Shown here: positions 8,038 through 58,729 of the stretch, in pieces
Layout: each line of letters begins with the position of its first letter
How positions within the stretch are numbered: position 1 is the first letter of the stretch
Assembly (NCBI GenBank): GCA_035084275.1
Contig: CM068746.1
Location: forward strand, 31,186,001-31,250,000
DNA from: Hydrolagus colliei
Taxonomy: Eukaryota
Direction: 5' to 3'
Length of the DNA: 64,000 bases
The notes under the pieces: model-generated
Told to the model about the DNA's origin: nothing
Database searches by the model: none
What the model saw: only the letters and a program-made list of their open reading frames with translations
Position numbers and translations under genes: made by a program

Positions 8038-8108
8038 ATGCACAGGAACTTCCGAAGGTGGATTTTGTATGTCCTTCTCTGCCTGGGTCTCATCTATATC
8101 AAGTTAGG
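8038..8108 (+). CDS. WNT7B: Wnt7b alternative first coding exon 1a (MHR-type signal peptide)
   Basis: ATG at 8038 reads MHRNFRRWILYVLLCLGLIYIKLG, matching the recalled vertebrate WNT7B N-terminus (MHRNFRKWIFYVFLCFG...). It is 71 nt and ends GG|gtaagt, a canonical phase-2 donor that joins exon 2 in frame. Confidence 0.96.
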
Positions 8109-12700: not shown

Positions 12701-13429
12701 ATCCCAAAGTTTTACCTCAGCAGTTTCAGTCAATCTCTCAGTCTTGCACCAACACACCTTCTGTACGTGTAGCTTTTATTGAGTTATCTATATACAAATC
12801 ACTCTTCAGTATTTCATAGCAGATTTGTTTTTCTCCCCCACATCACCGTTTTCGGCCATTGTAGCCCTTCCTGGTATGGTAGAACAATTGAACCACATTT
12901 CCAGTTAAATAAAGTTGAAGCCCAATTAAAATAACCTTTAAATATTTTTAAAAAAACAACATTGTTTCTGTTACATGTAGCAAAAACACAAAACCAATAG
13001 AATGCAGGTGGGGTACACGATTTAGCTCCACTTAGAAGTAAAAGGCCATTCCTTATTGCCAATTTTTACCACAAGAGAACACTATCTGCTGCCAAAAAAG
13101 ACACTGTAATAACGCCTTTTATAGAACAAAGTATATGTAAGGTAAAGTGCATGTGCTCAAAACACTTATTCCATCCTCCACTGCAGTAAAAAATGATAAC
13201 GGTGGCCATTATTATTGTGACCCTTAAACACATTCAAATTCTCACGGTGAATTTGTTTCTTAAAGGTGATTAGATATAAAATTCCAAATTCTCTGCTGTA
13301 CACTCTCCACCTGACCGTATTTAATCTGGTGGAGCCCACCACTAAAAACCCCCACCAATCACACACACAGACCAGTAACGTCAGTACTCTGTTGTGATGG
13401 ACAAGCTATAAGCTATAACACAATAATAA

Positions 13430-13602
13430 AATTGGTCATTCACTCCACGACTGTTGGTGGGACACTGCTGTGCGCAATTGGCTGCCGCGATTCGCCCACA
13501 AATATACAGTCAATTCACTTTACAGTATATTCTGTGAAGCGCTTTGGGACGTCGATAGATGTGAAAAGCGCTATATCAATGCAAGGATTATTATTATTAT
13601 TA
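13430..13602 (+). mobile_element. SINE family A 3' half, well preserved
   Basis: attggtcattcactccacgactgttggtgggacactgctgtgcgcaattggctgcc...aagcgctatatcaatgcaaggattattattattatt. Confidence 0.88.
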
Positions 13603-14727
13603 TAAGCATTGATCATATGTTACTTTGTACCTACAGCTCCTTAATTACTAATATCCTTACTGCATTGACCTGTATTATTATCTAGAGCAATCTAGGCAAT
13701 CGATGATTGAATGTATTTAACGTGTATTCAAATAAACTGTAGACAAAATTATCAAGAATAGCAAACGACTGACAGTTAGATTAAGTCAGTGATTACTGTA
13801 CATCAGAAAGTTTCTCCCCACTCTTATTAGCAATCCAGGCTTAACTCTCTCATGTCATTGGATCTCAGCATTTCACCAGTAAATCACGGCCTCCCAATGC
13901 CTTACTTGTCGTTTCCTTCCGTACTATTTAGAGATTATGTGTAATTAGGAGCTAAATGCACAAAAAAGGTTTACACTGTAACCTTTTAAAATGCAAGCCT
14001 GAGAAACCCAACATGGCCCGAACCTACACTCGATCCTGATTATTCGCGCGACAGAATTAGTGTTTGTGGGGCTGAGGCGAAGGGAGTTATTTAGTTTATG
14101 AAAAAAATATTAAAAGCGAACATTCTGCTAAGAAACACTCCTGTGGCAGTTACACCAGTGGGGGGTTTTTTATATATAAAAAAAACAAAGTTAATTTGTG
14201 ACAAAATGACAGTTTGCACTGAATTCAAACAGCGAATTTCATTGACCTCCCCTGGTTACAGTCCCGGTGTTTGAAGTGTGCCCACTGTCTTTTCCCACAT
14301 TCAAAAAAAACACAGCGCAAGGTGGTTGTGGGACGTGTCACGGTGTCTAGGGGGCAGATCTGGGGGGATTTCATTGTCATTTTCGACCCATTGTGATTTG
14401 AAAGAGAGTGGGCGGATTGCAGTGGCTGGGATTAGTGTGTCTGCCCAATTGCAGCACTCGGTCTCCTGAGAGCAGAGGCAACTCTCCACACAACACTCAA
14501 CTATCAGAACAGCAACTCCCAACAACTACAAACCACGGCTCCGTCATGAAAGAGAAGCAAAAACACACATCTAACACTCCTCGGGCCCGGCAAGACACTG
14601 AACAAGGCTGACCGAGCACTGCCAAGGACTTACACAAAAGACCCGAGATTACAAATAGTAGATATCACATTTATAATAAAAGAAACAAGGACAAAAAAAA
14701 AACCAGGAATTTATGCAGAGGGCAACC

Positions 14728-14810
14728 ATGATCATCTTTTCATCCCGCAGTGTGATCCTGTCAGTTTACTACCCGCAGATCTTTCTGATCCTCACCAGCG
14801 GAAGTTATCT
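14728..14810 (+). CDS. WNT7B: Wnt7b alternative first coding exon 1b (MLL-type isoform)
   Basis: ACCATG at 14728 reads MIIFSSRSVILSVYYPQIFLILTSGSYL, resembling the recalled mammalian alternative N-terminus MLLLSPRSALVSVYCPQIFLLLSSGSYL. It is 83 nt and ends CT|gtaagt, phase 2, in frame with exon 2. An in-frame upstream ATG lies at 14713. Confidence 0.92.
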
Positions 14811-16116: not shown

Positions 16117-16343
16117 AGCCTTGTCCTCGGTGGTGGCTTTGGGAGCGAATATTATCTGCAACAAGATCCCGGGTCTGGCCCCCCGGCAGCGGGCTATCTG
16201 TCAGAGCCGGCCCGATGCCATCATTGTGATCGGCGAAGGCGCGCAGATGGGAATCAATGAGTGTCAGTACCAGTTCAGGTACGGCCGCTGGAACTGCTCG
16301 GCGCTCGGAGAGAAAACAGTCTTTGGACAAGAACTCAGAGTGG
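16117..16343 (+). CDS. WNT7B: Wnt7b exon 2
   Basis: Pyrimidine tract and tttcag| acceptor. Encodes [75 protein letters not shown]. It is 227 nt with donor G|gtgagt. Confidence 0.98.
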
Positions 16344-21589: not shown

Positions 21590-22310
21590 TTGTTGTCACT
21601 AATTAGCTTTGCTCTCACCTCTCCCTCCACAGCATTCTCGAGCCCCTCCAGTTTTGTTTTCACCTTGCCCATAGCACAGAGACAGTGTTTGTCAAAATCA
21701 CAAATAATGTCCTCTCTATCTGTAACCAAGGCTGCCTCTAGCTACTTATCCTTTAGAACCTCTCCTCCTTGATCACCCTATCCTCATCCACCACCTCTCC
21801 TCCCTTACCCACCTAGGTGGAACCTGGTTTGTCTGTTTCGAGTCCTACGTAACAAATTGCCTTTACTTTTTCTCCTCAAATGGCTTCTCCTCTCGCCCCC
21901 ACCCAGTGACCTATGGTGTACCTCAGGGTTCAATCCTTGGTCCCCTCTCTTCCTCATCTATATGCTCCCTCGTGGTGATGTCATCTGCAGATATGGGATA
22001 AACTTCCACATGTATGCGGATGACAACAAATCTACTTGTCCTCCTTCAATTCCACCACATCGCCTACCTCTGACCAGATCTTACCCCAGATGCAGCCAAA
22101 ACACTTGTCCACTGGCTCCATTCTGCTGAACGGATTGATTTCAAGATACTCACACTTGTTTTCAAATCCCATCATGCCCTGGCACCTGCCTGCCTGTCCA
22201 ACCTACTTACTCCCCAACCCAGTACCCACTGCCTCCATTCGACTGGCTAAGGCCTTCTTCTTGTCCCTCATGCTCTACATTCTACCATTGGCAGACATGC
22301 TTTCAGCCAC
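21590..22310 (+). mobile_element. L2 LINE reverse-transcriptase relic
   Basis: GVPQGSILGP, then a frameshift, then LFLIYMLPRGDVICRYGINFHMYADD at ~21915-22025: canonical L2/CR1 RT motifs. Confidence 0.85.
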
Positions 22311-35190: not shown

Positions 35191-37958
35191 TGCTTACTGT
35201 GAGATCATTTAGCTGGCTTTCTCTAGTTCATGAGAGATCTCTGAAGTTACTTTTCTCTGGTTTTCTTTGGTGTTATCCTCCAAGGGAGAATGTTACTTTT
35301 TTTTCTCTTGTGTTGGAGGATTTGGGAGAGTGTTACTGTGTTTTCTTATTATTTTTCTGTAAAGGAAACACACTCCTCATTTCTCTGATGTTCTGTCCTA
35401 CACGAGATTGTACCTGGGTTTTCTGTGGTGTTCGCGGAATACAAAGCTTCGACTATAAAACATGGAATTTAGACTTGTGGTTTTAGGAACAGTTTAACAT
35501 GTAATGTGATGCCACATTTGTAGGTACTTACCTCAGTGTTGAAACTCCTTCCCATAATGACTGGAAGGTAGTATTATATTGTGCACCCACAGTCACAAGA
35601 TCTGAGCTGAAGTATCTGGTGCTGCAGATACCAAATGGAAGAGCAGAAACTCATGGAATCAGAGGTCACTTCTTCATTCAGTGTACTTTGTCAATCTTAG
35701 TTTGATCACTTCTTTTATTCTGCTCTTCAAGGCGTTACCTTCAGGCTGTACTTTTTTTCAATAGCAACTATAATCTTGCATCTTGTGTGTAGCTTGCGAT
35801 GATGAGATCTGAATTCATTCCTATCTGTTGTTTGCATTCCAGAATTATTAGATATTGCAGTTACATCTGGCAGATTTCATAACCTATTCCCGCAGGGAAA
35901 TTGTACATATCTCCATTTTCTTTTATTTGGGAACTACAGTCGTTTTGGCTGCATAGGTGAGAATAACAATCAGCAACTCCTCACTGATATGCGCAAAACT
36001 GTTGCTGGAGTCCAAAAGCACATTCATTGCTGCCAATTTTGCTTTTGCTCTGGCACTTTTGTTCCTGAATGGATTGACCCATGCTGCAGTATGATCTCTC
36101 ATGCACTGTCAGGCCCAACACCTTCTTCACATTGTGATCCAAGATGGTGAGGGTGGGCAGGAAGTTTCTCTGTGGATGTCTTGTCTGCTGAGTCCAATGC
36201 TGTCCTGATCTCATATACAATCATGTGTGCTTCCTAGCTGGGTTCAATAATTAGTGATTAAGAGTACAAATCTAAGCTTTCAGCTCCATTGTCAAGTATG
36301 CTAATTGCTTAACTGTTGTCTTGGTTTAGATCATCTTACTCGGCATAGATTAGGAAGTTGATCGACACACGAGTATCATACTTAATTTATATAACTCCCC
36401 TGATTCATTGCTATGGCCAGGGATCAAGGAATTGAGTATAATACCGTCTTATACAGCTGACCCTTTCAGGACTGAGATTTGAGAAGATTCTAAGGAAGTT
36501 CAGATGTGTGAATACATACTGTTCCCCAAAACACAAGGGTAGAAAATTCCTGTGCAAAACAGCATATTAAATGACTTGTGCTGATTGAAACAATAGATAA
36601 TGCTGTGCTGTATGTGTGGCTCTGGATGTGGACAGTGCATTTAAACCTGGGGAGAATAACAGCACACGGTGGATAGGCAATTGCAATTTCCATGGCAATT
36701 GCAAAAAATGAACAGATTGTACGTTAGATTAAGAATAATGAATACCTAGCAGCAAGTTGATTTTCACTTAATAACATAAAATGTCCTCAATGTGCAATGA
36801 GCAATGGAAAATAAGAGGCAGTAAGGGGATTCACTGGACAGTGAAAATAACTGACTTATGATTGAAATATAAAGAAATAACAGGACTGAGTGGATTACAG
36901 TTGTTTGTGGATTAGGTAGTGGGATATGTATAGGTAACAGTGTGTCTGCAATGTAATGGCAGGGACAGGGAAGAGAAAGTCTGGAAGTCTTCCATAGAGG
37001 ACAGTTGTTTGCCCGGAAGCTGGTTCAGAGCAGCCATGGTTAAATCGATGAGTAAACTGCCTCCCATCTTCTCTGACAGTGCTTAAACCATGGAAATATC
37101 ACGTATTTCTCACCTTCAAAACATATTTGTGCAGTAAATAGACCTTTCTGAAACATTACAAGAAATTTATTTTTAAAACAAGGAAAACATTAATGATCAG
37201 GTACACCTTATCTCGTGCTGAGAACTGGAAAGGATATTAACTGCACTGGAAGGGTTCCTTAGCTATCAGAACACCCCACCCCATACCCTCCATTCTCCCC
37301 CTTACATCACAACAAGGTATTTCAGCCCAATTGATCTGCTAATATTGGACAATGAGATATGATTGTTTCTGTGATTTTTGGATTAGAAGAAGGGGATTAA
37401 ACGAATGTCAATTAATGGAGACCAACAAACCAGTTCTATACCATAAATAAATGAACAAATAATTAGTCTGTAGCCTTGCTTGATAACCTTTAGTGGGAAT
37501 TGCGAAATAATTGTCCAGAACTTTTCCTCATTTGCGGTTCACTGAGCTGAATGATCTTTTCTTGTTCTATGTGTTCTTAAGTTCTTACTGCATGGGTTCA
37601 TAAAAGCAAGGTGAGGTGCTATGGATATTTGGTTATAGGGAAGCTATCTCAAGCATTGGCAATCAAAACAAGTGTTATTGCTGTTCACATTAACCTGAGT
37701 TCTATGTTGCAGCATTTTGTGCTGAGCTCCTTCAAAGGTGTTTGAGAGGTTCAAGCGTTTGGTGTACTTCACAGCAATAAGTTGAAAACAACCTCCTGGT
37801 AATTTAATGAGTCAAAGGGAGGAGTGACAATGGTTAAAGATGAGCAATATTTTCAAATCCTAATGATTTTAATACTGAAGTCACCACTGAACTGAAATAA
37901 ATGGTGGAGCTGAATTCTGTCCCATATCCAGTGCCTGTAGATGGACCAGCTTGGATTG

Positions 37959-38082
37959 GCCTGCACTCTGCTGACACTGTGTTCCTGTCCGAGAGAAACA
38001 GGGCTACAAGAAGCAGGATGAGGGATGGAAATGAAGAAGTTGCTTGGCAGATTATGAAACTCGGATCGAGACACATTTCTCC
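37959..38082 (+). pseudogene. Degenerate duplicate of part of Wnt7 exon 3 (pseudo-exon)
   Basis: 37990-38070 aligns without gaps to 38609-38689 (58/81 nt by hand count). It reads REKQGYKKQDEGWK*RSCLADYETRIE versus [27 protein letters not shown], with an in-frame TGA at 38032. Confidence 0.85.
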
Positions 38083-38504
38083 ACAGTGAGAGTGTAGTTC
38101 AACAAATATGAATGTGTCTCACTTGAACAAAGCAGGTTCTCTGACTACCTGTTCAATTACAGTTAATGTAAGAGATTCATCAGAATAAGGGAAAATATAT
38201 ATAATAATCCAATGAATTAAATAGCAGGCTGCTGACAGCTGATGTGTAACAAGTTTCTTTCCTCAATTTTGAAGATCAGTTTGCTCCTGTGTGTCAAACA
38301 CCTATGGAGCTTTTGTGATGCAACTGCATTGAGAAACTCTTATTACTGTATCATCAAATTTAGATTTACTAAATCTGTGGTTAAATGTTTTTTTTTCGCA
38401 AACTTGGAATACGTGTCACAAATGGTCTCTCTGCTTTCTTACAAATAATTCATAACCGAGATTTATTTGCCCGACATCCTAACATTGCCCTTCTGTGTCT
38501 CTAG

Positions 38505-38776
38505 GGAGCCGAGAAGCAGCGTTTACGTATGCCATAACTGCGGCCGGTGTAGCTCATGCGGTGACTGCTGCCTGCAGTCAGGGAAACCTGAGTAACTGTG
38601 GATGTGACCGAGAGAAACAAGGCTACTACAACCAGGAGCAGGGCTGGAAATGGGGAGGCTGCTCAGCAGACATCAAGTATGGGATTGAGTTCTCCCGGAG
38701 ATTTGTTGATGCAAGAGAGATCAAGAAAAACGCCAGGAGACTGATGAACCTGCATAATAATGAAGCTGGCAGAAAG
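38505..38776 (+). CDS. WNT7B: Wnt7b exon 3
   Basis: Acceptor ctctag|. Encodes [55 protein letters not shown]...[11 protein letters not shown]. It is 272 nt with donor AAG|gtatct; phases agree with exons 2 and 4. Confidence 0.98.
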
Positions 38777-41773: not shown

Positions 41774-42253
41774 ATCCTGGATGAAAGAATGAAGCTGGAA
41801 TGCAAATGCCATGGTGTTTCTGGTTCATGTACGACCAAGACGTGTTGGACAACGCTTCCCAAGTTCAGAGAGATTGGGTATGTTTTGAAAGAAAAATACA
41901 ATGAGGCTGTTCACGTGGAGGCAGTGAGAGCATCTCGTCTACGGCAGCCCACGTTTCTCAAAATCAAGAAGCCCAGGACCTATCGAAAACCAATGGACAC
42001 AGATTTAGTTTATATCGAACGATCACCAAACTACTGTGAAGAGGACAGCTCGACAGGGAGCGTGGGGACACAGGGGCGGTTGTGTAACCGCACTTCGCAG
42101 TATGGAGATGGCTGTGACCTGATGTGCTGCGGCCGGGGCTACAACACCCACCAGTACACCAAAGTCTGGCAGTGCAACTGCAAGTTTCATTGGTGCTGCT
42201 TCGTCAAGTGCAATACCTGCAGCGAGAGGACGGAAGTGTTCACCTGCAAATGA
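41774..42253 (+). CDS. WNT7B: Wnt7b exon 4 coding part (terminal exon)
   Basis: Acceptor ccaacag|. Encodes [25 protein letters not shown] (Wnt signature with the lipidated Ser)...[19 protein letters not shown], stop TGA at 42251-42253. Exons total 71+227+272+480 = 1050 nt = 349 aa plus stop. Confidence 0.98.
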
Positions 42254-58563: not shown

Positions 58564-58627
58564 ACATAGTCAATGTTTCACCTCTTACTGAAGTGAAACA
58601 TTGACTATGTTTCACTTCAGTAAGAGG
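58564..58627. repeat. Two overlapping perfect inverted repeats
   Basis: 58564-58581 pairs with 58593-58610 (18 bp); 58581-58601 pairs with 58607-58627 (21 bp). Confidence 0.95.
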
Positions 58628-58729
58628 CTGAATGAAATATGTTTAGTAAATATTCTCTACAATAAAACAAGCCACTTTTTGGTTCAGATTTGAATCAAGT
58701 GGAATTTTTGCAAATTTTGCAACACGTAA

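Follow-up and report, generated by a model that had tools for sequence, protein, structure and literature searches.

A frame-broken partial copy of Wnt7b exon 3 in intron 2 of the gene in Hydrolagus colliei

Introduction

Does intron 2 of Wnt7b in Hydrolagus colliei hold a decayed second copy of exon 3 and, if so, what was this copy and does it do anything now? The original prediction for this locus was that an old duplicate of exon 3 lies 619 nt upstream of the functional exon. It was suggested that the copy could be the relic of a mutually exclusive exon or of a tandem Wnt7 paralogue, with residues of the WNT7A type, and that it could act as a stop-containing poison exon or as a regulatory element. 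Here we follow up these ideas in the window, by which we mean the whole 64-kb stretch of DNA that was analysed.

Results

The host gene is Wnt7b

The window carries a complete Wnt gene on the plus strand, with the following exons:

8038..8108, plus strand: Wnt7b first exon 1a
14713..14810, plus strand: Wnt7b alternative first exon 1b, with an ATG at 14713 or 14728
16117..16343, plus strand: Wnt7b exon 2
38505..38776, plus strand: functional Wnt7b exon 3, 272 nt long, entered in phase 1 and left in phase 0, with a Pfam wnt match at E 2.2e-34
41774..42253, plus strand: coding portion of Wnt7b exon 4, ending with the stop codon

The references used throughout were 84 named vertebrate sequences (82 of the Wnt7b type and 2 of Wnt7a) from the 120 listed of 276 matches; 35 unnamed entries and one insect-named entry were left out. 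Wnt7a was compared through three sequences (human, sturgeon and paddlefish). Among the matches listed, bird and eel Wnt7b share 98% identity with exon 3, and sturgeon and paddlefish Wnt7a share 81%. By this comparison the host gene is therefore Wnt7b. Exon 3 is equidistant from birds and eels, which fits a slowly evolving jawed vertebrate. Exon 1b has a GTAAGT donor in the correct phase for exon 2 and is matched by 24 of the 84 named references (among the matches listed).

Intron 2 contains a partial copy of exon 3

Intron 2 harbours a frame-broken, partial copy of exon 3, about 120 bases long, upstream of the functional exon. Its parts and its source are:

37959..38052, plus strand: firm part of the relic, a copy of exon 3 positions 38570-38671
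37990..38070, plus strand: gap-free core, 58/81 nt identical to 38609-38689
38032..38034, plus strand: TGA stop codon in the Wnt frame, replacing a Trp found in 82/82 Wnt7b-type references (among the matches listed)
38053..38082, plus strand: probable 3' tail of the relic, which carries a 6-nt insertion and reaches exon position 38695; weakly supported when taken alone
38570..38695, plus strand: source segment, the middle of Wnt7b exon 3

The gap-free match at an offset of 619, its identity of 49/63 over the first 21 codons (14 mismatches), the translations of the copy and of exon 3, and the open reading frame at 37901-38089 in the +1 frame had all been reported previously, and we reproduced each of them. 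When exon 3 was compared with the window by blastn, the copy was found at an E value of 1e-10 and the next DNA match at 0.17. A tblastn search with the exon 3 peptide, which had been proposed as a check, recovered the copy at 4e-6. The local DNA score of the copy was 3894, compared with a maximum of 1576 among 179 background windows of equal size, and its frameshift-aware protein score of 78 was attained by none of 782 background windows. When local-alignment signal was summed over the middle of the exon, none of 500 nulls was as good. By these values the resemblance is not due to chance. An assembly duplicate would be expected to be near-identical, whereas the copy is 78% identical to the exon over the 21 codons, with differences that are rich in transitions and in third codon positions. 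Only the short length of the match favours chance or an assembly artefact, and we find either scarcely credible.

The same alignments set the limits of the homology. Homology is firm from 37959 to 38052 and weak from there to 38082, so that the relic covers nt 66-191 of the 272 nt of exon 3 and includes neither splice junction. The gapped extension on the 5' side, which the original prediction had noted, holds as far as 37959 (0/250 and 1/150 nulls as good in anchored extension); to the left of this position the signal is at background (125/250). The claimed 3' extension fared less well. The stretch 38053-38082 is probably part of the relic, but is weak when taken alone (30/250 nulls as good, or 5-8/150 at fixed end points). 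The view that exon 3 had been copied as a whole was not confirmed. When both exon ends were tested jointly, they were no better than random intron (133-147/400 nulls as good), and the summed signal was ordinary both for the 5' quarter (213-234/500) and for the 3' third (64-140/500). The 5' quarter tested at a fixed end gave a weak hint of the exon end (10/150). The head of intron 3 compared with the stretch downstream of the relic gave 5/200 in one comparison, and 13/1000 or 298/1000 depending on the scoring. With permissive gap settings an alignment spans the entire region, but random windows then score high too. A 7-mer on the 619 diagonal (37857/38476) showed no excess over other diagonals, and the absence of flanking intron similarity, as had been noted, was borne out for the upstream side (117/200 nulls score as well).

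Three short segments further downstream resemble parts of the 3' third of exon 3. The segment 38108-38137 is a candidate 3' tail at the protein level and is convincing by eye (14/570 windows as good). A second candidate lies at 38162-38175 (20-193/1000, depending on the query and the scoring), and an 18-nt seed lies at 38306-38323 (5/300, chosen after it had been seen). As continuations of the relic these three are mutually incompatible and none extends past its seed, so we rejected them as evidence for a whole-exon copy.

In sum, the alignments support the predicted old duplication of exon 3 sequence, and we conclude from them that the relic is a real, ancient and partial copy of Wnt7b exon 3.

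The reading frame is lost and a coding past is not needed

A net deletion of 8 nt near 37971-37989 breaks the reading frame of the relic. In addition, the copy is altered at an invariant Gly-Gly and an invariant Ser, and its stop falls at an invariant Trp (references among the matches listed). Of the 14 differences in the 21 codons, 5 are synonymous and 9 non-synonymous, giving a dN/dS of about 0.3 (0.28-0.30), and 9 of the 14 lie at third codon positions. We simulated a copy that was neutral from birth alongside a constrained exon in which only silent changes were accepted. This reproduced both counts at d of 0.2-0.3, with tail probabilities of 0.19-0.65 for the 21 codons. Thus, the synonymous differences are uninformative about a coding past, and we rejected a coding phase after duplication as unnecessary to explain the synonymous excess. 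The best 42-nt stretch of the copy (35/42) is somewhat above the expectation for even decay (P 0.07, 375 matched simulations).

No protein of 35-114 or of 115-2000 aa had three 5-residue words in common with the read-through translation of the copy. Ordinary Wnt7b likewise escaped this filter, so the result rules out only an intact version that is close to the copy. None of the 84 named references (among the matches listed) carries the exon 3 segment twice. For the +1 open reading frame at 37901-38089, Pfam gave no match (lowest E 0.15), and among 1.84 billion protein representatives there was one weak match, to an unnamed sequence (40% over 32 residues, E 2.4e-4). An antisense open frame of 93 codons at 37840-38118 on the minus strand is likewise without a Pfam match; the window holds about 100 frames of at least 90 codons.

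The copy is of the Wnt7b type

The copy had been said to carry CT and DEGWK as WNT7A states. This assignment did not hold up. The glutamate at residue 45 is found in 81/82 Wnt7b references and in both Wnt7a references (among the matches listed), and is thus ancestral to both paralogues. The host exon has Q at this residue (38639-38641) where the copy keeps E. As E45 is nearly universal, the copy retains the ancestral residue and the host exon has changed. The duplication therefore most likely predates the E45 to Q change in the host, as judged from the residues compared, and codon 45 has been unconverted since Q arose.

Among the matches listed, the copy carries the Wnt7b-type residues R35 (77/82), Y40 (81/82) and E61 (52/82). 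T24 of the copy occurs in 1/82 Wnt7b references (among the matches listed) and in 3/3 Wnt7a sequences, and D44 occurs in 0/82 Wnt7b references (among the matches listed) and in human WNT7A, but not in sturgeon or paddlefish Wnt7a. Each of the two is one base away from the host codon. The 21-residue score of the copy had a median of 78 against the 82 Wnt7b references and 63 against the 2 Wnt7a references (among the matches listed); residues and scores together show its Wnt7b origin.

A relic of a tandem paralogue was not supported either. Exons 2 and 4 match only themselves by tblastn and blastn, so that no relic of them was found in the 64-kb window, and the 84 named references (among the matches listed) match only five Wnt7b exons and the relic there. 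An origin from a tandem Wnt7 paralogue or from WNT7A would account for T24 and for the D44 shared with human WNT7A. Both are single-base changes, and the Wnt7b-type residues, the scores and the lack of neighbouring exon relics weigh so heavily on the other side that we hold this origin to be highly improbable.

Age and neutral yardsticks

Matched simulations gave quartiles of 0.25-0.34 for the divergence d of the relic (5-95% range 0.19-0.38; prior uniform over 0.15-0.4). The available text of PMC13100897 gives a dS of 0.061-0.111 for the whale shark compared with the zebra shark over about 50 million years, from which we computed 0.6-1.1e-9 per site per year; slow shark rates also appear in the available part of PMC10587355. 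If the shark rate applies, the relic would be roughly 180-580 million years old (for d of 0.2-0.35), a figure drawn from one slow species pair.

As a neutral yardstick we used a dispersed repeat, about 180 nt long and ending in TAT repeats, found at 13417-13603 and in at least 18 other places, which is presumably SINE-like and may resemble shark SINEs. Nineteen copies of this repeat, the commonest in the window, lie 0.03-0.41 from their consensus (median 0.17) and are still alignable. Therefore, survival of the relic needs no selection. Elephant shark SINE copies are given a mean divergence of 12-22%, and up to 49%, in the available portion of PMC5499810.

Two other features of the window were observed. 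Open frames that look like LINE fragments lie in intron 2 at 21726-22126, with motifs that are presumably reverse-transcriptase-like, and self-comparison revealed a nearly perfect self-complementary stretch at 58564-58632 (91% over 57 nt).

Candidate splice sites

The best candidate for a cryptic exon is:

37932..38085, plus strand: preceded by a candidate acceptor and followed by a candidate donor, with a second possible donor after 38167

The candidate cryptic splice sites all lie outside the duplicated stretch. Splice sites were scored with a crude matrix and ranked among the 1356 AGs and 1203 GTs of intron 2. On this crude matrix the acceptor at 37932 is at the 92nd percentile (score 1.2) and the donors at 38085 and 38167 are at the 93rd and 98th (0.9 and 2.5), where the weakest real sites of the gene score 1.9 and 1.6. 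By the same crude scoring, a pairing of acceptor and donor that is as good is available to 34 of the 1356 acceptors in intron 2. The real acceptor is preceded by a YTRAY branch motif, but the 60 nt upstream of 37932 contain none. At 38776/38777, the donor of the functional exon 3 (AAG/GTATCT) scores 1.6 on the crude matrix, below the cryptic donor at 38167.

Inclusion of 37932-38085 would cause the relic to be read in the +1 frame, with a stop at 38593-38595. With the best cryptic sites the stop thus lands in exon 3, and not at the TGA of the relic that had been noted earlier. Nonsense-mediated decay (NMD) follows a rule of 50-55 nt. The stop would lie 181 nt before the last junction, and so more than 50 nt before it, and all of 20 splice combinations give a premature stop; these results are uninformative, since most pseudo-exons do likewise.

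The core is enriched in purines relative to the exon (47 compared with 43 of 63, P 0.007), a weak sign noticed after the fact. The word AAGAAG occurs twice in the core, with a P of 0.0006 for that word and of 0.18 for any new hexamer occurring twice. A gain of splicing enhancers was considered and rejected. The count of 7 motifs compared with 0 was circular, as the motifs had been chosen afterwards, and the fairer test gave 0.18.

An inverted repeat at the edge of the relic

One further element adjoins the relic:

38082..38104, minus strand: imperfect inverted copy of the relic 5' end (37955-37981), beginning where the homology ends

With windows fixed on the relic ends, the DNA score of this inverted arm was matched by 1/373 and 3/314 GC-matched pairs; against all window pairs it is ordinary (36 and 81 of 1605 as good). 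The right arm spans the cryptic donor at 38085 and has relic-specific bases in common with the left arm, and the T24 codon, which was earlier taken as WNT7A-like, falls within the inverted arm. According to the available text of PMC7954356, template switching can leave an inverted copy at a junction. It is possible, from its position and score, that the inverted copy is the scar of a template switch, or it may be due to chance.

A structural role for the RNA found no support. The window contains no Rfam family and the fold z-score is -0.44. A terminal stem was rejected: it was matched by 3/5301 with hand-picked arms, but by 139 and 26 of 1605 with fixed windows and by 64/373 and 17/314 GC-matched pairs, and it is missing from wider-context ensembles. 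The hairpin over the cryptic donor has a pairing probability of 0 in wider contexts.

Simulations of the mode of origin

When a whole-exon copy was allowed to decay evenly and neutrally, the observed pattern appeared in 0/400 runs under every one of 16 settings, and the product of marginals did not exceed 0.001. A copy of the middle of the exon gave the pattern in 27-46% of runs at d of 0.15-0.25 and in 12-29% at 0.3. A tandem unit of 619 nt should also have left similarity between intron and intron, and none was seen, the score being at background as given above. In simulation, no more than 5% of runs failed to show this homology at d up to 0.3, and 3-23% failed to do so at 0.35. Indels in these simulations were limited to 40 nt, and therefore a longer duplication trimmed by large deletions stays compatible with the data.

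Discussion

We have proposed a model for the relic that addresses how it arose, how it decayed and why it is still there. In our view the relic is likely to be a neutral fossil, left by a short duplication that was local and templated. This event would have placed a single copy of about 95-125 nt of mid-exon sequence from Wnt7b exon 3 in intron 2, some 0.6 kb upstream of the source and in the same orientation. The copying may have involved a switch of the replication or repair machinery onto the nearby exon as template, rather than a long head-to-tail duplication or retroposition. Because the relic lies 0.6 kb from its source, a local DNA event is favoured over retroposition, although this is an inference.

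The second part of our model concerns the fate of the copy. As it came without a splice site, the copy would never have been an exon and would have been harmless to the gene. It would have drifted since birth, gaining about 0.2-0.35 substitutions per site on its own branch, whereas the real exon would have changed mostly at silent sites. We propose that the relic is still recognisable because the genome evolves slowly. It would be without function, except perhaps for rare mis-splicing that NMD would clear. We infer this neutrality from a single sequence, which holds significant homology to part of the gene's own exon, loss of frame and changes of the neutral type.

The predicted link to mutually exclusive exons deserves separate consideration. 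On the one hand, the copy is homologous to the neighbouring exon and lies on the same strand in the adjacent intron, 619 nt away, which is the classic position. On the other hand, it corresponds to only part of the exon, lacks splice sites in homologous places and has no open frame (the TGA at 38032 and the frameshift near 37989; 0/20 splice combinations in-frame). One could suppose that a whole-exon tandem duplicate, perhaps once an exon 3a/3b pair, has lost its ends by deletion, or that its middle was kept by constraint or conversion. The dN/dS of 0.28-0.30, the weak hints at both exon ends (14/570, 10/150, 5/200 and 5/300) and the length of an exon 37932-38167 (236 nt, equal to that of exon 3 modulo 3, a one-in-three coincidence) would agree with such a history. 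However, the exon ends are jointly non-homologous, the three 3' continuations fail on extension, the even-decay simulation never gave the pattern, and the dN/dS is explained without a coding phase. Nor did a protein of 35-2000 aa share three 5-residue words with the copy or a named reference among the matches listed have the segment twice, and the E45 that the copy keeps speaks against conversion of that codon since Q arose in the exon. We therefore find a relic of a mutually exclusive exon unsupported, and a whole-exon origin distinctly unlikely.

A present role for the relic, as a poison exon or a regulatory element, also appears unlikely to us on the features of the DNA. As a poison exon, the mid-exon piece would have supplied enhancer sequence, the cryptic sites at 37932 and at 38085 or 38167 would have been recruited, and inclusion would shift the frame of Wnt7b and lead to NMD. 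The percentile ranks of these sites, near the weakest real sites of the gene, the premature stops and the purine gain of the core all point in this direction. However, the matrix was crude, 34 acceptors pair as well, the branch motif is missing, random pseudo-exons also give premature stops, and the donor hairpin does not persist in wider contexts. The purine gain itself comes down to one 6-nt cluster, which slippage could make, and one change on the host side. We consider a poison exon quite improbable. Alternatively, the middle of exon 3 may bear transcription-factor sites, and the copy may have been kept as a non-coding Wnt7b element, that is, as a duplicated exonic enhancer. There are precedents in the available text of two papers: 24/31 conserved coding exons of developmental genes were enhancer-active in zebrafish (PMC3342275), and 38 exonic remnants were kept after the teleost genome duplication (PMC2831330). 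The slightly uneven decay of the copy (P 0.07) would fit as well. Yet Wnt is mentioned 0 times in the main text of either paper, the single remnant tested could not alone drive consistent expression (as PMC3342275 says of PMC2831330), and the divergence of the relic is fully accounted for without constraint. We regard an enhancer as very improbable. A combined version, in which an ancient copy with purine-rich words and new cryptic sites was kept lineage-wide as a +1-frame poison exon or cis-element that tunes the dose of Wnt7b, is one that we seriously doubt on the sequence features at hand.

The neutral fossil that we favour can be compared with several known systems, as these are described in the available text of the papers cited. 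Ivanov and Pervouchine (2022; PMC9013439) reported 4,027 unannotated intronic targets homologous to exons of their own gene in human. The relic resembles this class in being an exon-homologous intronic sequence of the same gene and strand, within their identity range of 57-100%, but differs from the highlighted cases, which have split-read and conservation support, in being partial, frame-broken and known from sequence alone. Tandem mutually exclusive exons, such as SCN exons 5a and 5b (PMC12772994) and those of a human catalogue (PMC9741552; see also PMC8373072), share with it the homologous neighbour in the adjacent intron. Unlike the relic, each of them is a complete exon that has an open frame and splice sites of its own. 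Their duplications can date to jawed vertebrates and be lost in some lineages (PMC12772994; PMC9741552). The supplements of PMC9741552 and PMC8373072 gave 0 matches for WNT among tandem duplicated exons, nor does the available text name a WNT gene. The available text of PMC12772994 deals with intact exon pairs and offers no example of a decayed copy that affects splicing. The exonic remnants of Dong et al. (PMC2831330) are also recognisable non-coding pieces of coding exons at developmental loci; however, they stem from whole-genome duplication and show excess constraint, whereas the relic is a local intragenic copy. Lastly, template-switch mutations (PMC7954356; PMC5453318) share with the relic the copying of a nearby template and, at a junction, a cluster of mutations beside a short inverted copy. 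Those cases are short-range and recent, with a known ancestral state, while the relic lies about 0.6 kb from its source, is ancient, and would have arisen by the mechanism proposed here.

A Wnt7b intronic exon copy was not described among the full-text literature matches listed, which cover few subscription papers. Thus, the Wnt7b relic seems to be undescribed, while intronic exon homologues as a class are already known and common. As neutral debris the relic is minor: at most it would be a clade marker, and it would also serve as a record of an older state of the exon (E45). Mapping the Q45 of the host across relatives would set a minimum age for the duplication. If the relic were constrained or spliced, it would represent lineage-specific control, by NMD or as an enhancer, of a major developmental ligand through a piece of its own coding sequence.
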